A DNA stretch of 64,000 nucleotides. It comes from Candidatus Melainabacteria bacterium 17Bon1m. GTDB taxonomy: Bacteria > Cyanobacteriota > Vampirovibrionia > Obscuribacterales > Obscuribacteraceae. Shown here piece after piece: positions 44,783 to 58,039 of the stretch. The notes under the pieces are model-generated. The model was not told the DNA's origin and ran no database searches. It saw only the letters and a list, made by a program, of their open reading frames with translations. A program made the position numbers and the translations under genes. The number at the start of each line of letters is the position of its first letter. The first letter of the stretch is position 1. The stretch spans positions 544,001 through 608,000 of the forward strand of contig JAVLKG010000001.1 in assembly GCA_032128875.1 (NCBI GenBank), in the 5' to 3' direction.

Positions 44783-46000
44783 TCATGTCGAACCAGATAT
44801 CGGCTTTTGAAACGGAACCACATTTAGACGTCGTTTGCTGCCCTTTAGAAGCGATTGTTGAGCCTTTGCCTTGGCATCACGCTCGGCGTTCTTTGCGGTG
44901 TGCGCATAGACCAGCATAGTGGTTTTAATGTCTTTGTGGTTAAGCGCTCCTTGAATGACCGATGCGTTTGCGCCACTGTTTGCCATCCATGAGGCCATAC
45001 TGCGCCGCAAGTCGTGAAGGCGTAGGTCTGTTATCTTGGCGCGCTTAAGAACTCGTGCCCACGCGCGTTTTGGATCTGCAAGATGGCCTTGATTGTGTGG
45101 ACCGGGGAATACATATTCACCCGGGGCAGCCACCATTCTTTTCTTCAAGATGGAAAGGTCAACATCTGTCAACGCGACTATATATTGATCGCCTGTCTTC
45201 GTTATTTCGCCCGGAATGGTCCAAGTACCGGTAGTGAAGTTGATGTCTTTCCAGCGCATTGCAAGCAGGTTTGACTTGCGCTCGCCGGTTAGTAAGGCGA
45301 GCATGAAAAAGTCTCGCATCACTGGATTCTCTTCCCAGTCCAGCGCGGCTTGAAGGCGTTCATACTCACCTTCATCCAGCACCCTAGAACGCGCGTTCTC
45401 CGGAAACATCGTGACGATGGTCGCAGGATTGCTGCCCTCAAAGAATCTCCATTTGATTGCTTTGTTGAACATCGCGCGCAGAATTTCAATGGCGCGATTT
45501 GCCGCGAGCGGTCCGCGAGTGTCGGCAATCTTTTGATGCAGTTCCATCACTTCGGTTGGATCAATTACAGACAGTCTTCGTGTTTTCCAGTGAGCAAAAG
45601 CTTTATCGAATGACGCGGTTATTTCGGCAACTCTTCTTCCTTTCTTCGAAAGGTGTTTCTCGACATAGTGTTCGAAGAGTTCTTCCAAAGTCATTTCTTT
45701 GTGTGATTGCCGCCGAACTTCAGCGAAGTTTTGTCCAACGGAAAGTTGCGATTGGAATTCTTGTGCTTTGGTTCTCGCCTGTTCAATTGATAAGTCTGGA
45801 AACCGGCCAATGCAAAGCCGCTCCGACTTACCTTGAAGTTTTCGCCGACAATAAAAGGTTTTTGTGCCCCCAGGCGAGACCAGGATGTAAAGTACGCGAA
45901 CCAGTTCATCAAAATAACGCACCTGTTGAGAACCAGGAGCTGGCAGTGGAAGCCGCTCGATCTCTCTTTTAGTAAAGTTGATGTAGTTGGATGCTGGCAT
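44783..46000 (-). CDS. int: Tyrosine recombinase/integrase with N-terminal arm-binding domain (P4-like)
   Basis: TGERKSN (Arg), HDLRR, LNH, terminal Tyr (VYAH); N-terminal VSPGGTKTF...IGRFPDLSIEQAR. Confidence 0.95.
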   Translation of the reverse strand: MPASNYINFTKREIERLPLPAPGSQQVRYFDELVRVLYILVSPGGTKTFYCRRKLQGKSERLCIGRFPDLSIEQARTKAQEFQSQLSVGQNFAEVRRQSHKEMTLEELFEHYVEKHLSKKGRRVAEITASFDKAFAHWKTRRLSVIDPTEVMELHQKIADTRGPLAANRAIEILRAMFNKAIKWRFFEGSNPATIVTMFPENARSRVLDEGEYERLQAALDWEENPVMRDFFMLALLTGERKSNLLAMRWKDINFTTGTWTIPGEITKTGDQYIVALTDVDLSILKKRMVAAPGEYVFPGPHNQGHLADPKRAWARVLKRAKITDLRLHDLRRSMASWMANSGANASVIQGALNHKDIKTTMLVYAHTAKNAERDAKAKAQQSLLKGSKRRLNVVPFQKPISGST

Positions 46001-48352: not shown

Positions 48353-48431
48353 GTGTTAGTCCGGTTGTACGGCAAATTTTGCCGCTAAGCGTGAATTGTA
48401 TTGTGGTAACCATATCCTAGATGGAGGGAAA

Positions 48432-48791
48432 ATGGGCAAAACTATAGATTTGAAACAGCTGGCAGTTGCGAAGTTTCCTGAGAAGGTTGCTGCGCTGCGG
48501 ATGCTGTTTGGTTTTACCCAAGAAGAACTTGCGAGAAGTCTTGGCGTTAACGAAAAGACTATAAGGCGTTGGGAGCGCGAAGATGTTGAACCACGCGCGC
48601 AAAACAAACAAGCCGTGCAGGCACTCATAACCATTGCCGAAGCGCTCTGTGATCTGTTTGAACCAGATGTAATAAAGGTTTGGGTCGATCGTGAAAATCC
48701 GAAGTTGAATGGCGAGCGTCCCAGGGACTTTGTGAAGAGGCCTGGCGGTATCTTTATTGTGGCGAACTTACTTGGTACCGTGGGCCGCTGA
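48432..48791 (+). CDS. XRE HTH + MbcA/ParS-like C-terminal antitoxin
   Basis: FTQEELARSLGVNEKTIRRWE and WVDRENPKLNGERPRD. Confidence 0.8.
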   Translation: MGKTIDLKQLAVAKFPEKVAALRMLFGFTQEELARSLGVNEKTIRRWEREDVEPRAQNKQAVQALITIAEALCDLFEPDVIKVWVDRENPKLNGERPRDFVKRPGGIFIVANLLGTVGR

Positions 48792-49040: not shown

Positions 49041-49592
49041 ATGAAAAGTTTAGTGATAAAGAGGCATCCAAGTCTAGTGCCACTTTCAAGAGACAACGGT
49101 GTAGGCCTTTTATGTGCGCAACGATTGCGCAAGGCTGTACGGGCATCCGCAAATGATCGCTTGCAACTGGCAGAACAAATGCGTGTAGTATTCACCGACT
49201 TGATCGGATCATTTCTGGACGATGAGTACAGAGTCTTGTCGCCTGTCATTGCCAACAACGAGTTGCGCGTTCGATTGGAGCAACACCACGAAAGTGTGCG
49301 CAGCTTACTTGCTGAGTTAGAGCAGCTCGAATCCGCACAAGATCCGGGTTTAGGCTTATTGTCGAGAATTGCTGATGTGCTCGATAATTACGTTCGCTGG
49401 GAAGAAAATACGCTTTTCCCTTGTATCCAAGAACAGCTTGACGGTTCGCAATTGGAAAAACTTTCCGAGACAACCGCTGCAATTGAAGCAAGCCGGACGC
49501 GCCCTACGCAGCAACTTCATTCTTCAGTATCTCTCGATAAGCAGTCTGGAGTGGCTGAGACCTGTGTATGCTCAAAAGCGAAAAGCGCATAG
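49041..49592 (+). CDS. Hemerythrin-like domain protein (degenerate ligands)
   Basis: KRHPSLVPLSRD, RLEQHH, YVRWEENTLFP. Confidence 0.75.
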   Translation: MKSLVIKRHPSLVPLSRDNGVGLLCAQRLRKAVRASANDRLQLAEQMRVVFTDLIGSFLDDEYRVLSPVIANNELRVRLEQHHESVRSLLAELEQLESAQDPGLGLLSRIADVLDNYVRWEENTLFPCIQEQLDGSQLEKLSETTAAIEASRTRPTQQLHSSVSLDKQSGVAETCVCSKAKSA

Positions 49593-49632: not shown

Positions 49633-49860
49633 ATGAATATTACAATAAATACGACAGTTAAAGAAATAATCGAAGCTCGCCCTGATGCTTTGGATGTATT
49701 TTTGAAGCACGGCGTTGATGTGCCGTTGGAATGCGATGAAAGCATTCAAGATTGCGAACTGAGTCTTTGCGATAGCATGTGTCACATCGATGACGTCGCC
49801 GCTCTGATACGGGATTTGGAGAAGTTGTTCGATTCTGCCAGCATGCCTCAGGTGTCTTGA
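49633..49860 (+). CDS. Small Cys-containing DUF1858/ScdA-N-like protein
   Basis: TTVKEIIEARPDALDVFLKHG.D...C, L..CD..CHID...L..DL. Confidence 0.7.
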   Translation: MNITINTTVKEIIEARPDALDVFLKHGVDVPLECDESIQDCELSLCDSMCHIDDVAALIRDLEKLFDSASMPQVS

Positions 49861-49906
49861 TGGTATTCACAGTGGTGCCGCACGTGCTGCCGGGACCACT
49901 GTGGTC

Positions 49907-50245
49907 TTACCGCCCGGAAAACTCTTTCATGACTTGTCCGTAGCGTTTGCCGACAGAGCCGCAGACTATGTCGCACAGCTCATAAATGCTGCTGTCACAG
50001 ATGCTGTAGAAGACAAACAATCCTTGGCGTCGTTTTTGAACAATCCCCTGTTCTGCCAGCACAGACAAGTGCTTACTGACGTTTGCCTGGCTCATGCCGC
50101 TCAACTCACACAATTCCTGTACCGAACGCTCTTCCTTAAAGAGGTATTGCAATATTTGCAATCTGGAAGCGTCGGATAGCGCCCGGAAGCGGGACGCAAC
50201 GATTTCGAGCGCCGGTCGTGACAGTAATTTGTTTTTGTCTTTCAT
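49907..50245 (-). CDS. ArsR/SmtB-family repressor divergent from the persulfide operon
   Basis: FRALSDASRLQIL, SQANVSKHL, C-terminal LCDIVC. Confidence 0.92.
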   Translation of the reverse strand: MKDKNKLLSRPALEIVASRFRALSDASRLQILQYLFKEERSVQELCELSGMSQANVSKHLSVLAEQGIVQKRRQGLFVFYSICDSSIYELCDIVCGSVGKRYGQVMKEFSGR

Positions 50246-50318
50246 ATTGGAAAGCCCATGTTTCACTAAGTCCAGTCTACAACCCTTTGGTTGATTCTTC
50301 AATCAATCTTATGGTTGA

Positions 50319-50350
50319 TTCGCTATATAACCAATTAGCGATATAGTGAA
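50319..50350. promoter_or_regulatory. Probable ArsR operator (inverted repeat)
   Basis: TTCGCTATAT-N12-ATATAGTGAA (9/10 match) between the divergent genes. Confidence 0.6.
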
Positions 50351-50375
50351 TTTGATTCCATTTGAGGGCTTCACT

Positions 50376-50951
50376 ATGTCAGAAACGTCTAAATCCTCCG
50401 TTTGCCAGCAATTGGCGCCTGCCGATCTGGCAGCAGTTGCTGGAGATATGGTGCTGCTCGATGTTCGCAGCCCGATTGAATTTGAGACGGAACACATACC
50501 TAACTCTATAAATGTTCCGCTCAACGAGCTTGAATCTCGCTGCGAGGAAGTGTCTCGGCAGGGGCAGCTCGTGGTGATATGTAGGTCCGGCAAACGAGCG
50601 GAACGTGGTGCTTACACCCTCTTAGGCAAAGGTTTTCAGCCCAAGGTGCTGGATGGTGGGTTGGTTGCCTGGCGCAAAGCCGGGCTGCCAGTCAAGGAAG
50701 GTAGAAAGATGCTTCCTATAGAACGTCAGATTCAGCTCATTGTTGGCATCGGTGTCCTGGCGGGCGTTCTCCTCGGTGTTTTCGTAAGTCCATGGTTTTT
50801 CGTCATTCCTGGATTTTTCGGAGCAGGGCTGACCTTTGCAGGTTTGTCTGGAACTTGCGCTTTAGGAATTATGTTGGGGAAGGCTCCCTGGAATGCGCTA
50901 AAAGCGCCGACCACGCAAAAGCAGAGCAACAAATCTAGTTGTTGTCCGTGA
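50376..50951 (+). CDS. Rhodanese + DUF2892 membrane protein (YgaP-like sulfurtransferase)
   Basis: LDVRSPIEF, active-site CRSGKR, ERQIQ, GAGL.FAGLSGTC..., APWN. Confidence 0.92.
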   Translation: MSETSKSSVCQQLAPADLAAVAGDMVLLDVRSPIEFETEHIPNSINVPLNELESRCEEVSRQGQLVVICRSGKRAERGAYTLLGKGFQPKVLDGGLVAWRKAGLPVKEGRKMLPIERQIQLIVGIGVLAGVLLGVFVSPWFFVIPGFFGAGLTFAGLSGTCALGIMLGKAPWNALKAPTTQKQSNKSSCCP

Positions 50952-50968
50952 CAGGCGGAGGTGATTTG

Positions 50969-51712
50969 ATGCTGGGAAGTGCAATTGCTGGACTTGCAAC
51001 CGGCACCCTGCTGGGACTTCTAGGGGGTGGCGGAACCATCATAGCAGTGCCGATTCTTGTTTATGTCCTCGGATTGGAGGCTAAGGCAGCGATAGGCACG
51101 AGCTTGATCATAGTTGGTTTGGCAAGCTTGCTCGCTGCATGGAGTCATTACCGGCATCACTCAGTAATTGTTTCCACTGCTCTTATATTCGGAGCGACGG
51201 GCGCTCTGGGTAGCTTCGCAGGCGCCAAGATTGCACAAGTCATTCCAGACGCGGTGCAACTGAGTTTGTTCGCTATTGTTATGGCATTAGTGGCTTTACT
51301 GATGCTGAAGCATAAACGGCCAACCGAGTTGGCGAGCAACGACACAAAACTCGCACTGCCAGTGGTGGTAGCTTCGGGTGTCGGCGCTGGGGTGTTGACC
51401 GGTTTGATCGGCGTCGGTGGCGGGTTCATTATTGTCCCTGTGTTCACCATACTTTTGCGCATGCCGATAAAGCAAGCAATCGGTACTTCACTGCTTGTGA
51501 TTAGCATCAATAGCATGGTAGGCGCGATTTCATACGCTTCGCGCTTGAGTTTCAATTTCTCAATCTTACCTTTTGCCGTGGGTACCCTGGCTGCTGCTCC
51601 CCTTGCGGGTCGTGTTGCCCAGTACCTCCCACAGGAAAAACTCAGGATTACCTTTGCGGTATCACTATTAATTCTGTCAGCGTGGATGCTGACCAATCAA
51701 ATTTTCCAATAG
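50969..51712 (+). CDS. Sulfite exporter TauE/SafE family
   Basis: GLLGGGG.I.VP and GLIGVGGGFIIVP repeats, AIGTSL twice. Confidence 0.92.
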   Translation: MLGSAIAGLATGTLLGLLGGGGTIIAVPILVYVLGLEAKAAIGTSLIIVGLASLLAAWSHYRHHSVIVSTALIFGATGALGSFAGAKIAQVIPDAVQLSLFAIVMALVALLMLKHKRPTELASNDTKLALPVVVASGVGAGVLTGLIGVGGGFIIVPVFTILLRMPIKQAIGTSLLVISINSMVGAISYASRLSFNFSILPFAVGTLAAAPLAGRVAQYLPQEKLRITFAVSLLILSAWMLTNQIFQ

Positions 51713-51727
51713 CTACTGGAGTTACTT

Positions 51728-53125
51728 ATGTATTTCAAACAGTTTTATCTTGGATGCCTTGCTCATGGCTCTTATCTGCTCGGTTCAGAAGGAGAAGCTG
51801 TTGTCATCGATCCGCAGCGAGATGTGGACCAATACATTGAAGAAGCTAAGAAAGAACGGCTTTCCATCAAATACATAATAGAGACGCATCTGCATGCGGA
51901 TTTTGTAAGTGGGCATAGAGAGCTGGCAGAAAGAACTGGTGCTCAGATTGTTTTCGGCGAAAAGGCCGGCGCATCGTTTCCTCATATAGCAGTCAAAGAC
52001 GGAGATATCTTACAGGTTGGAACGTTGATTCTCTCCATACTTGAGACCCCAGGGCATACTCCTGAAAGCATTTGTGTTCTAGCGAAAGATGCTGCTGACG
52101 ACAAGCCAGCCATGTTGTTCTCTGGGGACACGCTTTTCATCGGGGACGTCGGTAGACCAGATCTCGTCGGCAGTAAAGGCTACAGCGACAAAGAGATGGC
52201 AGGGTTGATGTACGAAAGTCTCCATGAAAAAGTCCTCAAGCTCTCTGATGACGTTGAGGTATTCCCGGCGCACGGTGCTGGATCGCTTTGCGGCAAGCAC
52301 CTTTCGAATGAAAAATCATCCACAATTAGGGAGCAGAAGTTGTTTAACTACGCTCTCAAGCCGATGTCGAAAGAGGCATTTGTAGAGATGTTGACCGCGG
52401 ATCAGCCGGAGGTACCGGCCTACTTCCCGAAAGATGTCGAAATAAATCGCCTGGGTGCTTCGTCTTTGAATACCCTTGCTCGCCCACTACCTTTAGGTGC
52501 AGAAGCAGTGGCAAAAGAGTTGCAGCGAGGCGCAGTTGTTCTCGACATTCGTGGTGCCGCCGAATATGCAGGCGGACACATTAAAGGTTCGTTGAACATC
52601 GGTCTTGGCGGACAGTTTGCCTCATGGTCGGGCACCTTAATCGAAATCGGTACACCCGTTGTTATTGTTGCAAATGAACTTGCTCAGATCGACGAGGCGG
52701 TTATGAGGCTTGCAAGGGTGGGCATCGAAAGCGTAATCGGCTATTTGGAAAATGGAATTAGCACCTGGCATGATGCCGGTTTTGAGGTGACGCAATCAAC
52801 GACAATCTCAGTTGCTGAACTCAAACGAAAGCTTGATGCCGGCGAAGACTTGTTGGTTGTGGACGTCAGGAGATCTGGTGAATACAACTCAGGTCACGTT
52901 CCGAGCGCAATCAATATTCCCTTAGCAGAGCTGGTAGAAGGCATTTCAAATTTGCCGAGAGAGTTGCCGCTGGCAGTAATTTGTGCAAGTGGCTACCGCT
53001 CAACAATTGCGACCAGTGTTCTTGAAAAGGGCGGTCTTAAATTCCTTATGAATGTTCTTGGCGGAACAGCCGCCTGGAAGAATGCCGGTTATGCCACGCA
53101 GAATAAGGAGACAACGACAGTCTGA
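51728..53125 (+). CDS. Persulfide dioxygenase-like MBL fold fused to two rhodanese domains (CstB-like)
   Basis: ETHLHADFVSG, TPGHT, GDTLFIGDVGRPDL, PAHGAGSLCG, C-terminal CASGYRS. Confidence 0.92.
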   Translation: MYFKQFYLGCLAHGSYLLGSEGEAVVIDPQRDVDQYIEEAKKERLSIKYIIETHLHADFVSGHRELAERTGAQIVFGEKAGASFPHIAVKDGDILQVGTLILSILETPGHTPESICVLAKDAADDKPAMLFSGDTLFIGDVGRPDLVGSKGYSDKEMAGLMYESLHEKVLKLSDDVEVFPAHGAGSLCGKHLSNEKSSTIREQKLFNYALKPMSKEAFVEMLTADQPEVPAYFPKDVEINRLGASSLNTLARPLPLGAEAVAKELQRGAVVLDIRGAAEYAGGHIKGSLNIGLGGQFASWSGTLIEIGTPVVIVANELAQIDEAVMRLARVGIESVIGYLENGISTWHDAGFEVTQSTTISVAELKRKLDAGEDLLVVDVRRSGEYNSGHVPSAINIPLAELVEGISNLPRELPLAVICASGYRSTIATSVLEKGGLKFLMNVLGGTAAWKNAGYATQNKETTTV

Positions 53126-53227
53126 TTTTGCATTGGAGTGATTTCACTACATTGAAAAGCAGCTCTCAGAGCTTGAGAAAAACTATCAACAACAGCGGTG
53201 AGAAAAAGAATATATGAGGACAGCAAT

Positions 53228-54979
53228 ATGAGAGTTACCGGTTCCACGGCAAAAAAGATTGTCATCGTAGGTGGTGTCGCAGGTGGAATGAGCGCGGCTG
53301 CTAGAGCGCGACGCCTTTCTGAGGATTCGGAAATTATCGTTCTTGAAAGAAGCGGATACGTCTCTTACGCCAATTGCGGTTTGCCATATTTTCTAGGAGG
53401 AGAGATTGAAACGCAGGAGCAATTGATAGTGGTTACGCCTGAGGCTCTGAAGGACAAACTGAATCTCGATGTTCGTGTTCATCATGAGGTCATTGAAATC
53501 GACGCGAAAGCGAAGATGGTATCGGTAAGAGAGACAACCAGCGAGCGGATCTATCAGGAGAGTTATGACGATCTGATTCTTGCTGTTGGAGCAGCTCCTG
53601 TCAGACCTGGAGTGCCTGGCATCGATCTGCCAGGGTTGTTTACGCTGCGCAGTATTGAAGATGTTGAATCGATTCAATCGTGGTTCGAGATTCAGAAGCC
53701 GCGCACTGCGGTAGTGGCAGGTGGTGGCTTCATTGGTCTGGAGATGGCAGAACAGTTAGCTCGCAGAGGAGTTGATGTCACGCTCATTGACGGCAAAGAC
53801 CACGTACTTGCACCGCTTGATATTGAAATGGCAGAACTCGTGCATAAGGAATTGCGAAAGCATGATATTAAGCTTGTGCTTGGTCGTTCGATTGAAGGTT
53901 TCCGTGCACCAGGCGAAATTGCTGGAGCTTCCGAAGATGTGCCAAAATCTTGCTGGGTTCTTGCTGAAAGACATGAGCCCATGCCGGCGGATCTTGTAAT
54001 ACTGGGGCTGGGAATCAGGCCTGAAGTAACGTTAGCGCGCAAAGCCGGATTAATCGTCGGCGAGCGGGGCGGTATTCGGGTAGACGATTATCTACAAACC
54101 AGTTCGCCTAACATATGGGCAGTCGGCGACGCAATTGAGGTGCGTAATCCGGTAAACGGCGAGTGGACACTCATTGCATTGGGAGGTCCGGCTAATCGTC
54201 AAGGACGCATTGCAGCGAACAACATCTTCGGTGCAAAACAAAACTACGATGGCACGATCGGCACCGCCATCCTTCGGGTGTTCGACCTGACTGTTGCATC
54301 GGTAGGGCTCAACGAAGCACAATTGAAATCAAGCTCTATTCCTTATGAAACCATCTTTGTTCATCCTAGCCATCACGCCAGCTATTACCCTGGCGCAGAG
54401 CGTCTTGATATGAAGATGCTCTTCCACAAGGAAGCTGGCACGCTGCTGGGCGCGCAGGTAATCGGTAAAGAAGGCGTCGATAAGCGGATAGATGTGCTCG
54501 CGACAGCGGTCAAGGCACGCATGACCATCAGCGATTTGTCCGAGCTGGAATTGGCATATGCCCCGCCCTTTGGCTCAGCGAAAGATCCAATTAATTTGGC
54601 AGGAATGTCCGGAACTAATGTGCTAGAGGGATTGGTCGAGCAAGTGCAGTGGCATCAAGTCCCAGCTTTGGCCACAAGCGGAGCCGTAATAATTGATGTT
54701 CGCTCGCGCGGCGAGCGTGCCAGAGGGTACATTGATGGCAGTGTTCACATACCACTCCCAGAGCTGAGAAAACGACTGTCAGAGGTACCAGTTGGAAAAG
54801 CGATAGTCACATATTGTCAAAGTGGTCAACGCTCCTACAATGCATCCCGATTCCTCAAACAGAATGGATTCAGTGTCAAGAATTTGTCTGGTGGGTACCT
54901 GACATGGAACTCAATGCAGCAAGGCAAGGAGGAAGGAACGGATCCTCAGAATGCACTACCTGCGGTGCTATCTAAATAA
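53228..54979 (+). CDS. CoA-disulfide (CoA-persulfide) reductase with C-terminal rhodanese domain
   Basis: GGVAGG, SYANCGLPY, GGGFIGLE, LAYAPPF, rhodanese YCQSGQRS. Confidence 0.93.
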   Translation: MRVTGSTAKKIVIVGGVAGGMSAAARARRLSEDSEIIVLERSGYVSYANCGLPYFLGGEIETQEQLIVVTPEALKDKLNLDVRVHHEVIEIDAKAKMVSVRETTSERIYQESYDDLILAVGAAPVRPGVPGIDLPGLFTLRSIEDVESIQSWFEIQKPRTAVVAGGGFIGLEMAEQLARRGVDVTLIDGKDHVLAPLDIEMAELVHKELRKHDIKLVLGRSIEGFRAPGEIAGASEDVPKSCWVLAERHEPMPADLVILGLGIRPEVTLARKAGLIVGERGGIRVDDYLQTSSPNIWAVGDAIEVRNPVNGEWTLIALGGPANRQGRIAANNIFGAKQNYDGTIGTAILRVFDLTVASVGLNEAQLKSSSIPYETIFVHPSHHASYYPGAERLDMKMLFHKEAGTLLGAQVIGKEGVDKRIDVLATAVKARMTISDLSELELAYAPPFGSAKDPINLAGMSGTNVLEGLVEQVQWHQVPALATSGAVIIDVRSRGERARGYIDGSVHIPLPELRKRLSEVPVGKAIVTYCQSGQRSYNASRFLKQNGFSVKNLSGGYLTWNSMQQGKEEGTDPQNALPAVLSK

Positions 54980-55054
54980 CAGTTTGGCACAGAGGTGAAT
55001 GTTGATATGAACGAATCGATAAAGGTATCAAAAGAAAAAGGAGGGCAAGGTCCC

Positions 55055-55243
55055 ATGGACAGCGTAATCTGGTTCGTTGGAATTGTTGTGTTCTACTTTG
55101 CGATGCAACTCTGGATATTGCCGAAGCTCGGCATACCTACTTGAATGTCACGGAGTTGCTCGGTCGGGCAGCAGAAGAAAACACCTGTTCAGCAAGAGAA
55201 ACAAGAGTCCATTAAGCATGGCGAACAAGGCAAAAGCGATTAG
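55055..55243 (+). CDS. Candidate small membrane selenoprotein (62 aa, Sec at codon 30; alternative in-frame start 55007)
   Basis: AAGGAGG RBS; MDSVIWFVGIVVFYFAMQLWILPKLGIPT-TGA(55142-55144)-MSRSCSVGQQKK...KSD-TAG; SECIS-like hairpin immediately downstream. Confidence 0.65.
55155..55172 (+). promoter_or_regulatory. Bacterial SECIS-like hairpin
   Basis: Stem GTTGCTC/GGGCAGC, loop GGTC; the loop begins 17 nt after the UGA. Confidence 0.65.
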
Positions 55244-56300
55244 AGCAATCCATGTGACACTGGTGTGTTTACTGGCAGCATTGAGCTTCAGTGGCGCTGT
55301 GTGGTCTGAAGAGTGCCGGACAACTGGTGCTGCACTCTCATCCCCTCTTGGTGCGCGTTGCACTGAAGATCCCTCATGCGTTATTGTTGGAGAGACCCAC
55401 ATGCTGGAGTGGAAGAGTCCAGAACCGGCCAAAATAATTGTGGTGTGTATACACGGACTTGGGTTGTGCGCTCGAGCCTACAAACCATTAGCTAAGGAAC
55501 TTTCTGCTGCAGGGATCGACGGATTTGGTGTGAACGTGCGAGGCTTTGGTCCTGACAGGGACAGACCAGATCGCGCGAAATTGAACTGTATAGAGACCGT
55601 AGGCGACGTGAGCAAATTGCTTACTAGCATTCGTAAAGAACACCCTGGCTACAAGGTCTTTCTCATCGGTGAATCAATGGGTGGTGCACTTGCAATAAGA
55701 ATTGCTGCAGAGAATCCAAGTTTAGTGGATGGTGTCGTCTGCTCTGCTCCTGCCTGGAAATTACTCAAGATGAAGCAGACTGCTGTAAAAGGTGTCTTTG
55801 AGTTGTTTTTGTTTCCTGGAAGTCATCCAGGCCCTGCCGGTCGTGCCATGATGCATCAAGCGACGACCGACCCTGAGCTAACACAGCACTGGTTAACGGA
55901 TCCATCGCATAAGTTGAGACTATCTTTCCATGAAGCTACTTCTCTTTTGCGCTTCATCTCGAAGACAGATACCTACGCCAAACGCATAAATGGACCTGTC
56001 TTGGTTGTTCAGGGTCTTGGTGATCATCTTGTATCGCCTAAAGCAGTTGCCAAACTAGTCAGAGATATCCCTTCTGAGAACAAGACGTTTCTCATTGATG
56101 GAAAGGGAGAGCATCTTGTTCTTGAAGAGGGCAAATTTTCGCCACCGCTTGTTGAGAAGCTGATCGCTTGGATGAAAACTGAGTCCAGCGATCAATCAAG
56201 AATGGCATTCGTGACTGAAGTGGTAAATGATCAGGCGCTATCTTCGAAGGAGAAACGCAGGTTGAAGACATTGCGGCGACTGTCTAGAAATCCAAACTGA
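55218..56300 (+). CDS. Exported alpha/beta hydrolase (lysophospholipase-like)
   Basis: IHGLG, RGFG, GESMGG, QGLGDHLV, GEHL; signal peptide from MANKAKA. Confidence 0.88.
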   Translation: MANKAKAIRAIHVTLVCLLAALSFSGAVWSEECRTTGAALSSPLGARCTEDPSCVIVGETHMLEWKSPEPAKIIVVCIHGLGLCARAYKPLAKELSAAGIDGFGVNVRGFGPDRDRPDRAKLNCIETVGDVSKLLTSIRKEHPGYKVFLIGESMGGALAIRIAAENPSLVDGVVCSAPAWKLLKMKQTAVKGVFELFLFPGSHPGPAGRAMMHQATTDPELTQHWLTDPSHKLRLSFHEATSLLRFISKTDTYAKRINGPVLVVQGLGDHLVSPKAVAKLVRDIPSENKTFLIDGKGEHLVLEEGKFSPPLVEKLIAWMKTESSDQSRMAFVTEVVNDQALSSKEKRRLKTLRRLSRNPN

Positions 56301-56403
56301 CATGCAAGCTTTTTGTGTCCTTCGGGATGCACCCAGGCTAGCACATTCACTACAACGGCCCTGGACAAAGCGGAATGCCGACGCAAGTTAACTCTTAAGT
56401 TGA

Positions 56404-57483
56404 CTACTTCGGAATACCCTTTTCGTACCAACCCTTACTATGGTTTACGATTTTGACGACAGCAAGCATGACCGGAACTTCAATCAAGACACCAACCACG
56501 GTGGCAAGAGCTGCGCCGGAATTGAATCCAAACAAACTAATCGCGGTTGCAACTGCAAGTTCGAAAAAGTTACTGGCACCGATGAGTGCTGAGGGGCCGG
56601 CGACGCAGTGAGCAACACGCAACTTCTTGTTGAGCAAGTATGCAAGCGAAGAATTAAAAAACACCTGAATCAGAATTGGTACCGCCAATATTGCGATTAC
56701 GAGCGGCTGCTTGAGAATTGCTTCACCTTGAAACGCAAATAGCAGTACAAGTGTAATGAGCAAAGCCGAAAGTGAAACGGGATGGAGGAATGCTAGCGTT
56801 TTATCGAACGCGCTCTGACCCTGTTTCAACAACAGACTTCTCCACAACTGTGCAATCAATACTGGTATCACAATGTACAGACCAACCGATATTAGTAGCG
56901 TATCCCACGGGACAGTGATAGAGGATAAACCCAGCAAGAGCCCGACGATGGGCGCAAAAGCAAAGATCATGATTAAGTCATTAACTGCAACTTGCGATAA
57001 TGTGAAATAAGGATCGCCTTTGGTCAACTGGCTCCAAACGAAAACCATTGCTGTGCACGGAGCGGCTGCGAGCAGAATCAATCCTGCTACATAGCTGTCG
57101 AGCTGATCTTGCGGCAGGTACTGAGCAAAAACTACGCGAATGAATATGTAAGCTAGAAGAGCCATCGAGAACGGCTTGATCGCCCAGTTAATGAACAGTG
57201 TCACCGCGATGCCTTTCCAGTGTTGCTTTACTTGTCCTAGCGCCCCGAAGTCAATCTTCAAAAGCATGGGCACAATCATCAACCAAATCAAAATCCCTAC
57301 TGGAATATTTACTCTGGCAATTTCAAGCGAACCGATGAATTTGACCGGACCCGACAAGAGCTGACCCAGCGCAATTCCTACGCCAATACAGAGAAAAACC
57401 CAGACTGTCAGCCAACGTTCGAAGAACCCTATAGATGCCTGAGTTGCTCCGCTGTCTGACACTTCACTTTCTTGAATGCTCAT
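56404..57483 (-). CDS. acr3: ACR3-family arsenite efflux transporter
   Basis: FFERWLTVWV, NWAIKPFSM, AAPCTAMVFVW, ASNFFELAVA, GVLIEVPVML. Confidence 0.97.
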   Translation of the reverse strand: MSIQESEVSDSGATQASIGFFERWLTVWVFLCIGVGIALGQLLSGPVKFIGSLEIARVNIPVGILIWLMIVPMLLKIDFGALGQVKQHWKGIAVTLFINWAIKPFSMALLAYIFIRVVFAQYLPQDQLDSYVAGLILLAAAPCTAMVFVWSQLTKGDPYFTLSQVAVNDLIMIFAFAPIVGLLLGLSSITVPWDTLLISVGLYIVIPVLIAQLWRSLLLKQGQSAFDKTLAFLHPVSLSALLITLVLLFAFQGEAILKQPLVIAILAVPILIQVFFNSSLAYLLNKKLRVAHCVAGPSALIGASNFFELAVATAISLFGFNSGAALATVVGVLIEVPVMLAVVKIVNHSKGWYEKGIPK

Positions 57484-57881
57484 CTACAATCCATGGGTAC
57501 TTCAGTCTTTGCGAGTTCTTCTACTTTTGCTTTGATCTCATCGCGCACACGCCTGAACACATCGAGAGGTTGCCCTTTTGGATCGTCGATATTCCAGTTC
57601 GCCTGGGTGCCAATGAATGTAGATGGGCAGAAATCAGCGGTCTTGACCGAGCACATAGAAATCACCGCGTCATAGTCGGCAAGTCTCTCGTTGTCGATTG
57701 TTTTGGAGAATTGCTTGGATATGTCGATACCTACTTCTTCCATAACCTTCACCGCGTCTGGATTGACGCCGCTGCCGGACTTAACACCGGCGCTGTCGGA
57801 CTCAAGACCTAACTGGCGGCCAAAACCTTCGGCTATCTGGCTGCGACAAGTATTTTCTATACAGATAAACAAGACTCTCAA
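57480..57881 (-). CDS. arsC: Arsenate reductase, LMW-PTP (thioredoxin-type); TTG start
   Basis: CIENTCRSQ (CX5R) P-loop, MC......CP resolving cysteines, WNIDDP; coupled to acr3. Confidence 0.9.
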   Translation of the reverse strand: MRVLFICIENTCRSQIAEGFGRQLGLESDSAGVKSGSGVNPDAVKVMEEVGIDISKQFSKTIDNERLADYDAVISMCSVKTADFCPSTFIGTQANWNIDDPKGQPLDVFRRVRDEIKAKVEELAKTEVPMDCR

Positions 57882-58017
57882 TTGCAGCACTCCAACTCTT
57901 CGATTTGTAATGGTTCTCCCAATCGCATAAACCATTAAGGACCAACATTTTGAATACTTCCAAGCGTAATTTTTTCGCCAGAGCCGGAAATGCTCTGAAT
58001 GCGTTTTTGTTTTCCAT
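57878..58017 (-). pseudogene. Internally deleted ArsR-type regulator remnant
   Basis: MENKNAFRAFPALAKKLRLEVFKMLV (ArsR N-terminus) joined out of frame to ...LGEPLQIEELECCN*, whose stop overlaps the arsC start. Confidence 0.6.
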
Positions 58018-58039
58018 ATTTCCAATATTATCGAAATAT
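58016..58039. promoter_or_regulatory. ArsR-type operator inverted repeat
   Basis: ATATTTC-N10-GAAATAT directly at the start of the arsR remnant. Confidence 0.65.

Follow-up and report, generated by a model that had tools for sequence, protein, structure and literature searches.

A candidate selenocysteine-containing membrane protein of a widespread Sec/Cys family, encoded beside persulfide-handling genes in a Melainabacteria genome

We analysed a 64,000-nucleotide stretch of the genome of Candidatus Melainabacteria bacterium 17Bon1m (the window) and found on its forward strand a 62-codon ORF (55055..55243), which reads MDSVIWFVGIVVFYFAMQLWILPKLGIPT up to an in-frame TGA (55142-55144), continues as MSRSCSVGQQKKTPVQQEKQESIKHGEQGKSD and ends with a TAG (55241-55243). 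Judged from this sequence and its relatives, the ORF very probably encodes a genuine selenoprotein, with selenocysteine (Sec) at codon 30, the TGA, which is invariant among relatives and has Cys counterparts in homologues. Comparison between genomes brings together a conserved TGA, Cys homologues, a covarying hairpin behind the codon, a tail that behaves like coding sequence, and the presence of the Sec machinery. The fuller explanation, in which the product is a 62-residue single-pass membrane selenoprotein belonging to a Sec/Cys family and carrying a redox pair that may be linked to persulfides, we regard as likely.

A Shine-Dalgarno-like sequence, AAAGGAGGG (55037..55045, + strand), has its 3' end 9 nt ahead of the ATG at 55055. 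It contains the AAGGAGG motif that an earlier sequence-only reading of this DNA had taken for the ribosome binding site, and a similar AAAGGAG is found upstream of the small ORF in several relatives. That reading had let the ORF begin at 55007. Readthrough to the TAG stands, but 55007 is an upstream in-frame ATG that would add 16 residues, and the 62 codons count from 55055. Translation of this possible N-terminal extension (MNESIKVSKEKGGQGP, 55007..55054, + strand) is putative; it is open, and has the ATG, also in close relatives of the window copy, and in distant family members the start lies only a few residues before the membrane helix. Annotated truncated versions of the ORF, 29 and 45 residues long, both come from gene callers. 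The ATG right after the TGA was considered as a restart codon and rejected, because the Met at this position is also conserved in Cys forms and is replaced by Ala or Leu in some Sec forms.

The TAG had also been thought to overlap the start of the next gene. The TAG itself does not; the downstream frame (55218..56300, + strand), which encodes an alpha/beta hydrolase (Hydrolase_4), has a likely, though putative, start at ATG 55218 followed by a signal-peptide-like N-terminus, and the two genes overlap by 26 nt if this ATG is used. An alternative start, GTG 55254, lies 10 nt past the TAG. Scanning for promoters and terminators gave fewer promoter-like sites than in shuffles, no terminator around the small ORF, and no terminator-like site between it and the upstream gene at 53198..54979. 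Three runs labelled RNA-Seq, which share their sample with the probable source DNA run, yielded contigs of 11-15 kb that match the DNA exactly over genes of both strands, with no sequence difference at the TGA (one sample). These runs look like library DNA and thus carry no weight as evidence of transcription.

The predicted protein starts with a single hydrophobic membrane helix (codons 4-22; 55064..55120, + strand), over which the 19-residue Kyte-Doolittle hydropathy reaches its maximum of 2.26. AlphaFold2 models a Cys homologue with 71% identity as one helix at residues 2-25 (pLDDT > 90), the remainder being of low confidence, so that hydropathy and model both back the one transmembrane helix proposed from the letters. 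The U-x4-C motif of the 62-residue readthrough product is likewise present in the sequence. Its second residue is Cys at codon 35 (TGC, 55157..55159, + strand), which lies within the 5' arm of the hairpin and is invariant in three alignments (A1, A5 and A6), hairpin-free Cys forms included. The predicted layout is thus an N-terminal membrane helix followed by T-U-x4-C and a disordered charged tail; the Cys-form homologues share the helix, an LP-x-x-G-x-x-T motif, a Cys at the U column and, four residues on, the second Cys. From the distribution of charges we infer that the disordered tail, rich in Lys, Glu and Gln, faces the cytoplasm. One database protein (P0177) has a thioredoxin fused to the family; it is the only such fusion among the representatives and, as a single cluster member, too little to lean on. 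A longer fused form of 244 residues (P0255) was set aside as an artefactual read-through.

The in-frame TGA is strongly conserved. Searches of 41 related genomes gave 24 matches (E < 1e-5), one of them a paralogue in the same genome, and all 24 contain exactly one in-frame TGA, with the alignment continuing beyond it; all 21 unique copies from relatives have TGA at this column. Across the window's order, Obscuribacterales, a match was found in 74 of 107 genomes, and 98 of 101 matches carry the TGA. The same codon is present in 28 of 30 matches from a sample of 301 Planctomycetota genomes, and in 136 of 139 matches from a sample of 301 Desulfobacterota genomes, 135 of which have a match. Matches lacking TGA in these three samples have no stop at the column or align only partially. 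The expectation that homologues would have TGA and never TAA or TAG was thus borne out, as neither appears at the U column among the 270 matches, 262 of them TGA-bearing. The family, with proteins of ~55 residues, occurs in about seven in ten sampled genomes of the order, more than four in ten Desulfobacterota and one in ten Planctomycetota; as predicted from these genomes, it is a large Sec/Cys family whose Sec form is dominant in Obscuribacterales and in the sampled Planctomycetota and Desulfobacterota.

A census of the U column in 254 database proteins gave Cys in 129 (one being our own U-to-C reading), 83 proteins that end exactly there, and Trp in 22; the remainder have Arg (5), Ser (3), Gly (2) or Leu (1), or miss the motif (9). 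Trp at this position presumably reflects TGA called as Trp by gene callers using code 4 or 25. Arg, Ser, Gly or Leu, found in 11 of the 254, counts against the Sec reading; such entries may be errors, products of other genetic codes or true variants. The Cys homologues anticipated at the U position thus exist, in the form T-C-x4-C. They match with E-values down to 8e-23, have TGY in place of TGA, usually lack the hairpin, and often have the same sulfur-gene neighbours. The 27 Cys-form loci come from MAGs of at least 8 phyla, and the homologues, annotated as 'hypothetical protein', sit in Planctomycetota, Omnitrophota, Myxococcota, Bacteroidota, Acidobacteriota, Leptospira, Nitrospirota and Obscuribacterales MAGs.

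Conservation past the TGA, another expectation of the sequence-only reading, was also found, the second Cys being invariant in Sec and Cys forms. The frame downstream of the TGA is open for 19-52 codons in all 21 TGA forms, and the spacing from U to C among relatives is x4, x5 or x6, meaning that the indels are whole codons. In the tail (codons 41-54), dN/dS was 0.12-0.24 in three pairs. By these measures, which are comparisons of sequence, the codons past the TGA evolve like coding sequence.

Past the TGA comes a SECIS-like hairpin (55155..55172, + strand). Its stem is formed by GTTGCTC (55155-55161) and GGGCAGC (55166-55172), seven pairs of which two are G-U, and closes on the loop GGTC (GGUC in RNA; 55162-55165); the first base of the hairpin is 10 nt past the TGA, and the loop begins 17 nt after it. 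RNAfold returns exactly this structure at -9.6 kcal/mol. The hairpin was thus described correctly in structure, position and loop from the sequence alone, but its energy is no better than chance (z = 0.36; 117 of 200 dinucleotide shuffles fold at least equally well), and its significance comes only from comparison with relatives. Among them the conserved portion is a six-pair core (55156-55161/55166-55171), in which CG is changed to UA twice, CG to GC once and UA to UG five times. The covariation score, computed on relatives within the order that are not independent of each other, was 0.176 versus 0.118 in shuffles, and none of 500 shuffles reached it. The hairpin is, then, kept in relatives with compensatory changes, as the check set for it asked.

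All 21 unique TGA forms from the order have the hairpin with a GGTC loop, versus 2 of 27 Cys forms. TGA forms from planctomycetes and Desulfobacterota have different stems in the same place, for example GCUCCGC-GGA-GCGGAGC. When SECIS-like hairpins were defined by a perfect stem of at least 5 pairs, a G early in the loop and a distance of 14-37 nt after the codon, 32 of 35 TGA forms had one, as did 11 of 27 among the Cys forms and 19% of the shuffles. Two recent Cys forms still have the hairpin, intact in one (L046) and with the loop now GGTT in the other (L045). The geometry of the window hairpin (17 nt, GGUC loop) falls within the bacterial SECIS consensus, which places a small apical loop 16-37 nt from the UGA, with a G at the first or second position of that loop (PMC13188914). 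At E up to 10, Rfam covariance models gave no match to 54950-55350. In the order, the nucleotides that form the hairpin also encode the peptide C-S-V-E-Q, so constraints on RNA and on protein are not fully separable there. Scanning the whole genome (G000) for TGA followed by a GGTY-loop hairpin gave as credible ORFs only the window copy and its paralogue, which indicates that the other selenoproteins of this genome do without this exact loop.

The machinery presupposed by Sec decoding is present: the genome encodes selA, selB and selD (all over the cut-off) and tRNA-Sec. It also contains a SelW-like gene with one TGA, and no Sec-type formate dehydrogenase was found in it. Among related genomes with TGA forms, 14 of 16 have selA, and the remaining two have selB and selD; all eight Desulfobacterota TGA-form genomes that gave no selA match have selB. 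In contrast, only two of six Cys-form genomes have selB, and the other four are without it. TGA forms thus occur, among the genomes checked, only where there is Sec machinery, at least selB. In Desulfobacterota, selA is present in 278 of the 301 sampled genomes, and a test of co-occurrence with selA therefore has little or no power there.

These results bear on two readings in which the codon would not specify Sec. If the TGA acted as an ordinary stop, the gene would encode a 29-residue membrane peptide, and the hairpin would be a regulatory or stabilising RNA that mimics coding conservation. TGA ends 901 of the 3546 long open frames in this genome (25%), and is thus an ordinary stop here; moreover, gene callers end the ORF at this codon in 83 database entries, the conserved peptide past it coincides with the hairpin within the order, and the hairpin energy is unremarkable. 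However, the Cys-codon homologues run straight through the column into a homologous x4-C and tail without having such a hairpin, and TGA, present in 262 of the 270 matches, is never replaced by TAA or TAG. Together with the open frame with whole-codon indels, the dN/dS of 0.12-0.24 in the tail, and the restriction of TGA forms to genomes with Sec machinery among those checked, this makes simple termination very improbable. A reassigned genetic code, with the TGA read as Trp or Gly, for which the 22 Trp and two Gly entries at the column could be quoted, seems to us extremely unlikely: a quarter of the long open frames end in TGA, it is Cys that naturally stands in at this column (129 of 254), the codon has a SECIS-like hairpin behind it, and selA, selB, selD and tRNA-Sec are all present.

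The small ORF lies in a run of genes related to sulfur. Starting from a divergent ArsR-family regulator (49907..50302, - strand), Pfam identifies on the + strand a rhodanese fused to a YgaP-like membrane domain (50346..50951), a TauE/SafE sulfite-exporter family membrane protein (50939..51712), a metallo-beta-lactamase-fold protein of the persulfide-dioxygenase type with two rhodanese domains (51728..53125), and, immediately before the small ORF, a CoA-disulfide-reductase-type flavoprotein fused to rhodanese (53198..54979; Pyr_redox_2, Pyr_redox_dim, Rhodanese). ArsR-family regulators, ACR3 and an ArsC-type phosphatase are also among the neighbours in the window. The order of small ORF and hydrolase is repeated in five other loci (L016, L017, L018, L022 and L023).

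Across 62 loci of the family, 24 have a rhodanese, TauE, YgaP, YeeE or adjacent CoADR-type (Pyr_redox_2) gene within ~2.5 kb. In 11 loci the small gene directly adjoins the rhodanese-fused CoA-disulfide reductase, which lies upstream of it in the window's order and, in other phyla, downstream with an overlap between the two genes; in five it directly adjoins the dioxygenase-rhodanese fusion, so that one or the other enzyme is next to it in 16 of 62. This sulfur neighbourhood is strong in the order to which the window belongs, in MAGs of the Omnitrophota type and in part of the Planctomycetota. None of five Desulfobacterota loci examined has a sulfur-trafficking gene nearby, and eight of nine Planctomycetota loci examined are without one; the link to persulfides does not, therefore, extend to the family as a whole. 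Thioredoxin-fold genes adjoin the small gene in four loci (L047, L052, L075 and L077), and in some loci the neighbours are connected with metals or metalloids, namely ArsP, ACR3, RND/CusB-type pumps, a CDF transporter and a P-type ATPase.

It is the gene neighbourhood from which we infer a role as redox subunit or persulfide carrier acting with the products of the rhodanese, dioxygenase and CoA-persulfide-reductase genes; the rhodanese-type neighbours suggest, and do not prove, a selenol/thiol redox function at the membrane face that is tied to persulfide handling. In the mechanism we propose, translation would start at ATG 55055, or possibly at ATG 55007, and SelB with Sec-tRNA(Sec) would decode the UGA at 55142-55144 as selenocysteine under the direction of the hairpin starting 10-11 nt farther on. 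The selenol and the second Cys, which is five residues away, would form a redox-active selenenyl-sulfide pair at the face of the membrane. This pair may accept or pass on sulfane sulfur, or may be reduced by the neighbouring enzymes, namely the CoA-disulfide/persulfide reductase with its fused rhodanese and the persulfide dioxygenase; its membrane partners would be TauE and the rhodanese-YgaP protein. That the job at this locus is the handling of sulfane sulfur or persulfide is a serious possibility, falling somewhat short of probable. A bolder version, in which the family is among the most widespread uncatalogued bacterial selenoproteins, an architectural counterpart of SELENOK and SELENOS whose selenol captures sulfane sulfur at the membrane face, as persulfide, polysulfide or membrane-dissolved sulfur, and passes it to the rhodanese domains of reductase and dioxygenase, is put forward as tentative and on the doubtful side.

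Other functions can be imagined for a genuine selenoprotein at this place. It is possible that the protein is a general thioredoxin-linked redox or antioxidant factor of the membrane face, and that its persulfide neighbours reflect a lineage-specific arrangement and not membership of a pathway. The Desulfobacterota, in which 135 of 301 sampled genomes have the gene and the five examined loci have unrelated neighbours, would fit such a role, as would the thioredoxin, rubrerythrin or hybrid-cluster protein genes beside planctomycete copies, the DsbD-thioredoxin gene adjoining the small gene in L047, the thioredoxin fusion P0177, and the paralogue in the same genome (L038), which has no sulfur genes nearby. 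However, the immediate adjacency of the reductase or the dioxygenase-rhodanese in 16 of 62 loci, in several phyla and in two gene orders, would be hard to obtain without a functional link in those lineages, and we consider the purely general role rather unlikely. Still less probable, in our estimate, is that the protein serves efflux systems as an accessory which, at the membrane, binds a soft metal or metalloid (As, Hg, Cu, Se or Te) or passes it on. A Sec/Cys-x4-Cys pair beside the membrane could make a plausible soft-metal site, and besides the ArsR-family regulators, ACR3 and ArsC-type phosphatase near the window gene, there are ArsP permeases adjacent in L021 and L077, AcrB-type pumps directly upstream in eight loci (L041, L049, L055, L059, L060, L061, L063 and L065), and a CusB/HlyD-type protein, CDF transporter or P-type ATPase in L073, L054, L058 and L045. 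Yet the most consistent immediate neighbours are the sulfur enzymes and not metal transporters, and the ArsR-family regulators that are fused or adjacent to rhodanese (L019, L020 and L036) fit sulfur sensing, for which ArsR-family members are known from the BigR/SqrR literature, at least equally well.

The predicted selenoprotein seems to represent a widespread family without an entry in current catalogues. The window protein had no match among NCBIfam and Pfam profiles at E up to 10; 14 Cys forms gave one chance match to exosortase (E 0.025) and nothing near a curated cut-off, and 20 'W' forms only chance matches far below cut-off. Precomputed Pfam assignments are '-' for all 120 homologues listed. 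The ESM Atlas gave nothing more than a cluster without a name, made up of 123 'hypothetical proteins' that come most often from Planctomycetota. Nothing similar, and no T-U-x4-C after a single helix, is included in a table from 2026 that covers 119 families of prokaryotic selenoproteins (PMC13188914). The impression from the sequence alone that this is not a described family agrees with these searches. Annotation pipelines now cut the family down to a 29-45-residue 'hypothetical protein' or overlook the gene. If confirmed, it would add a very common family to the bacterial selenoproteome and change the selenoprotein counts of whole phyla, and may be one reason why Sec machinery is kept in genomes without Sec-type formate dehydrogenase. 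It would also provide a natural and minimal model for Sec/Cys redox pairs anchored in a membrane, and natural series in which Sec has been exchanged for Cys, with SECIS elements that are in some cases decaying. That the gene repeatedly lies next to those for the rhodanese-fused CoA-persulfide reductase and the persulfide dioxygenase would point to a step at the membrane, as yet unstudied, in the handling of reactive sulfur.

With selenoproteins that depend on SelB and a SECIS, such as E. coli formate dehydrogenase H (fdhF), the window gene shares an in-frame UGA, a short intragenic hairpin with a loop starting with G, and the existence of Cys homologues, which are known for almost all selenoproteins. 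The fdhF element has an 11-nt spacer and a GGUC loop; fdhF itself belongs to an unrelated protein family. Catalogued bacterial selenoenzymes are far larger than the ~50-65 residues found here, where Sec stands directly at the end of a membrane helix. SELENOK and SELENOS are small proteins that cross the membrane once, by an N-terminal helix, and have in the cytosol a disordered tail bearing Sec, which in SELENOS forms a selenenyl-sulfide with a nearby Cys, and their architecture is analogous to that predicted for the window protein. However, they are not homologous to it (no Pfam match at E up to 10), and they have Sec at the extreme C-terminus, decoded by a 3'-UTR SECIS, whereas here Sec is beside the helix and the SECIS would be inside the ORF. 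The Tso proteins are reportedly described in a paper by Haft and Tolstoy. Small or membrane selenoproteins already catalogued include a MerT-like putative mercuric transport protein, YeeE/YedE, the SO_0444 efflux transporter and SaoP, and also TsoA (LULAxC) and TsoB (rhodanese/DsbD, UxxxxU) (PMC13188914 Table 1). Although NCBIfam and Pfam models reveal no sequence relationship to these families (the Tso proteins being compared via Table 1 of PMC13188914), they resemble the window protein in having Sec in or beside membrane segments, some of them with links to sulfur or metals, and in TsoB the two redox residues are likewise set apart by x4.

The layout described in a sequence-only reading of this DNA could be located in the window element by element. 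On the forward strand, a Shine-Dalgarno-like AAAGGAGGG (55037-55045) precedes a start ATG at 55055, from which 29 codons of hydrophobic peptide lead to an in-frame TGA (55142-55144); a hairpin, GTTGCTC/GGTC/GGGCAGC (55155-55172, minimum-energy fold of -9.6 kcal/mol), follows, and the frame closes with a TAG stop (55241-55243), 32 in-frame codons past the TGA. The TGA-interrupted ORF with its hairpin is real. The energy of the window hairpin was no better than chance, as 117 of 200 dinucleotide shuffles folded at least as well. The earlier reading began the feature at 55007, an in-frame ATG upstream of ATG 55055 that would lengthen the protein by 16 residues; this extension is also open in close relatives, and both ATGs are candidate starts. 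Its claim that the TAG overlaps the start of the next gene did not hold, as the TAG itself lies outside any start codon. As judged from the sequence and a Pfam scan, that gene (alpha/beta hydrolase, + strand) most likely starts at ATG 55218, which would give a 26-nt overlap with the small ORF.

We searched for homologues in six frames with stops read through. Searching 41 related genomes gave 24 matches at E <1e-5, spread over 16 of them and including a paralogue in the window's own genome (contig C1:1048537-1048680), and all 24 contained exactly one in-frame TGA, with the alignment continuing beyond it. Across 107 genomes of the order, 74 had a match, and TGA was present in 98 of 101 matches. 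The family reaches beyond the window's lineage: 30 of 301 genomes sampled from Planctomycetota (the phylum of G120, a Planctomycetaceae genome) had a match, 28 of them with TGA, and 135 of 301 sampled from Desulfobacterota (the phylum of G122, Desulfobacteraceae) had one, with TGA in 136 of 139 matches by per-genome counts. The expectation that homologues would run past the TGA, and carry neither TAA nor TAG in its place, was borne out, since alignments extended past the codon and neither stop was seen at the Sec column among the read-through matches. The nearest named database proteins come from 'Candidatus Obscuribacterales bacterium' MAGs. The second family copy of the window's genome (C1:1048537-1048692; L038:2044-2217) is ~50% identical, has the TGA and a hairpin, CTGTTC-GGTC-GAACAG, that includes a compensatory pair, and has no sulfur-related Pfam domains among its neighbours. 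A weak match (L032, G018:C46:137916-137993; E 0.09) reads ...ALPT-U-LTRSCSLGQ..., with a segment before the motif unlike the family helix, and may represent a copy that is frameshifted or decaying.

A genome without Sec machinery had been named as grounds for rejecting a selenoprotein here; the window's genome has selA, selB and selD above curated cut-offs and a tRNA-Sec with anticodon tca. Sec is used elsewhere in this genome, as shown by a SelW/Rdx-type gene (C3:460722-460922) whose single in-frame TGA sits in a CGAUGY motif; no Sec-type formate dehydrogenase was found. Of the genome's 3546 open frames with 300 codons or more, 901 end in TGA, and its code is therefore standard. Among the 16 related genomes with TGA forms, 14 had selA above the cut-off, and the other two (84% and 82% complete) both had selB and selD. 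In the Desulfobacterota sample selA occurs in 278 of 301 genomes, leaving the co-occurrence test little power there; eight TGA-form genomes of this sample had no selA match, and all eight had selB (one deduced from a numbering gap). Six Cys-form genomes were checked for selB, which was present in G117 and G124 and not found in G120-G123. At one Desulfobacterota locus (L084:1-876), a gene ~600 nt ahead of the small Sec gene encodes an AIR-synthase-related C-terminal domain, which occurs in selD among other families.

The sequence beyond the TGA behaves as coding sequence. Each of the 21 unique TGA forms keeps an open frame for 19-52 codons, and the spacing from U to the second Cys (x4, x5 or x6) varies by whole codons only. 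For the three pairs formed by the window, L016 and L045 (a Cys form), dN/dS was 0.24, 0.12 and 0.21 in tail codons 41-54, which lie beyond the hairpin and ahead of the overlap with the next gene, and 0.14, 0.66 and 0.30 in the N-terminal 29 codons, all of these comparisons resting on few changes.

A profile built from 20 Sec forms retrieved 516 proteins from a set of 5.8 billion and 556 cluster representatives from 1.84 billion. We classified 254 proteins at the Sec column and found Cys in 129 (one being a U-to-C reading of the window protein), confirming the predicted Cys-containing homologues. A further 83 ended exactly at this column and 22 had Trp, taken as TGA called under code 4; the others had Arg (5), Ser (3), Gly (2) or Leu (1), or no motif (9). 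In the Cys forms the sequence is ...LPKLGIPT-C-MSGA-C...; the second Cys and the Met after the first are thus common to Sec and Cys forms. A scan of species genomes, whose pattern contained 'TC' and could find only Cys forms, gave 27 loci, in MAGs labelled Planctomycetota, Omnitrophota, Deltaproteobacteria/Myxococcales, Desulfobacteraceae, Bacteroidota, Acidobacteriia, Leptospira, Nitrospirota and Cyanobacteriota; one labelled 'Chloroflexota' is 76% identical to the window protein. Two Cys forms (both TGT) are recent: L046:50-97, very recent, keeps the ancestral SECIS hairpin intact, and in L045:4606-4653 the loop is now GGTT. A database entry near-identical to L046 carries TGA (called as W), and these three are natural Sec/Cys switch pairs.

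A GGTC loop at the same place was found in 21 of 21 unique TGA forms of the order versus 2 of 27 Cys forms, L046 being one of these two. Within the order, the codons TGC TCG GTC GAG CAG (for C-S-V-E-Q) make up the stem and loop, and RNA and protein constraints therefore overlap. Ser is nonetheless invariably TCG and Val invariably GTC, and two copies with TGT for Cys use GAA for Glu, a synonymous compensatory pair. Of the 7-bp stem proposed earlier, a 6-pair core is conserved, and the seventh pair is present in just 4 of 21 sequences. The core showed CG->UA twice without an unpaired cell, CG->GC once and UA->UG five times. The anticipated covariation was seen in it, the score being 0.176 versus 0.118 in shuffles (reached by 0 of 500; slid partners, at most 0.082), for 21 related sequences whose kinship inflates such scores. 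More independent evidence comes from other phyla: the Sec forms of planctomycetes and Desulfobacterota have other residues after the UGA and other stems at an equal distance, such as GCUCCGC-GGA-GCGGAGC, GCCCCGC-GGA-GCGGGGC, CUGCUC-GGUU-GAGCAG and UGCCUGUC-AGGU-GACGGGCA. Under a rule requiring a perfect stem and a 3-8 nt loop that begins 14-37 nt past the codon and has G in its first two positions, stems of at least 5 pairs occurred in 32 of 35 TGA forms, 11 of 27 Cys forms and 19% of TGA-form shuffles; with at least 6 pairs the figures were 29 of 35, 7 of 27 and 7%.

Hydropathy of the window protein peaks at residues 4-22 (2.26). AlphaFold2 on P0002, a 71% identical Cys homologue (34 aligned Cys forms), gave a single helix at residues 2-25 with pLDDT >90 and no confident structure in the remainder (mean pLDDT 68.5). 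Q18, W20, L22, P23, G26, T29, U30 and C35 are invariant or nearly so. An acidic N-terminus, together with the Lys and Arg residues that come after the helix, would by the positive-inside rule put motif and tail on the cytoplasmic face. In one database protein (P0177, 208 aa) the helix and T-C-x4-C module are fused to a WCGPC thioredoxin domain; this single cluster member may be a gene-calling or frameshift artefact.

According to a Pfam scan, the forward-strand genes upstream encode a fusion of rhodanese with a YgaP-like membrane domain (50346-50951), a member of the TauE/SafE family (50939-51712), a metallo-beta-lactamase-fold protein that carries two rhodanese domains (51728-53125) and a CoA-disulfide-reductase-type flavoprotein fused to a rhodanese (53198-54979), with a divergent ArsR-family regulator (49907-50302, - strand). 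This domain content agrees with the persulfide-handling operon proposed earlier; the enzyme names are ones we assume from CstB, CoA-persulfide-reductase and BigR-type systems. A terminator scan found no terminator-like site between the reductase gene and the small ORF. Directly downstream of the operon, and convergent with it, lie an ACR3-type (SBF family) arsenite carrier and a low-molecular-weight phosphatase-type ArsC (56404-58025, -). A hemerythrin-domain gene (49041-49592, +) adjoins the regulator, and a hemerythrin gene also comes after the small Sec gene in locus L041. Further upstream, an Xre-type HTH protein with an antitoxin Xre/MbcA/ParS C-terminal domain (48396-48791, +; Pfam scan) and a 405-residue ORF resembling a tyrosine recombinase or integrase by eye (44783-46000, -) may mark a mobile island. 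Three sequencing runs labelled transcriptomic RNA-Seq (X2-X4) gave 11-15 kb contigs over 49800-56600 (longest >137 kb) that match the genome exactly across genes on both strands; these libraries seem to contain genomic DNA.

We scanned the neighbours of 62 loci, which are not all independent (L019 and L040, for example, share a contig). Rhodanese, TauE, YgaP-like or YeeE/YedE domains, or an adjacent CoADR-type (Pyr_redox_2) protein, lay within ~2.5 kb in 24: the window, 10 of 20 relatives' Sec loci, 12 of 27 Cys loci, 1 of 9 Planctomycetota and 0 of 5 Desulfobacterota Sec loci, the last with unrelated neighbours in the Pfam scan. In 11 of 62 loci the gene directly beside the small one encodes the rhodanese-fused CoA-disulfide reductase; it is upstream in the window, L017, L022 and L023, and downstream, often overlapping, in L055 (truncated at the contig end), L059, L060, L063, L065, L067 and L068. 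In L016, L018, L045, L052 and L056 the gene immediately upstream is a dioxygenase-rhodanese fusion. Recurrent among the other neighbours were AcrB-type pumps (in 8 loci, directly upstream), genes of the thioredoxin fold (L047, L052, L075, L077) and ArsP permeases (L021, L077). The persulfide link is thus real for several lineages, including the window's, and not universal. Motif and neighbourhood together suggest that the protein may pair its Sec and Cys as a selenenyl-sulfide at the membrane face, and point to a possible role in persulfide handling.

Comparison with catalogued families agreed with the earlier view that the protein lies outside them. The window protein had no match in NCBIfam release 20.0 or Pfam at E up to 10, 14 Cys and 20 'W' forms gave just chance matches far below cut-off, Rfam gave none, and the nearest ESM Atlas cluster is an unnamed 'hypothetical protein' set. 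Literature searches, with supplementary tables and the Haft and Tolstoy Tso paper outside their scope, found no description of the family. In the portions available, deep-Sep (PMC12013277) and BSepDB (PMC13326102; 111 families compiled from earlier reports) contain nothing similar, nor the words 'membrane' or 'transmembrane', and a planctomycete genome paper (PMC4807772) treats other selenoproteins. The table of 119 prokaryotic selenoprotein families with model ids in PMC13188914 (AEM 2026) has, in the part available, no small single-helix protein and no T-U-x4-C motif; the hairpin geometry agrees with the bacterial SECIS consensus quoted in that paper. In our judgement, the window ORF is a genuine selenoprotein of a yet uncatalogued family, notable for its breadth and tiny size, and its decoding is canonical.
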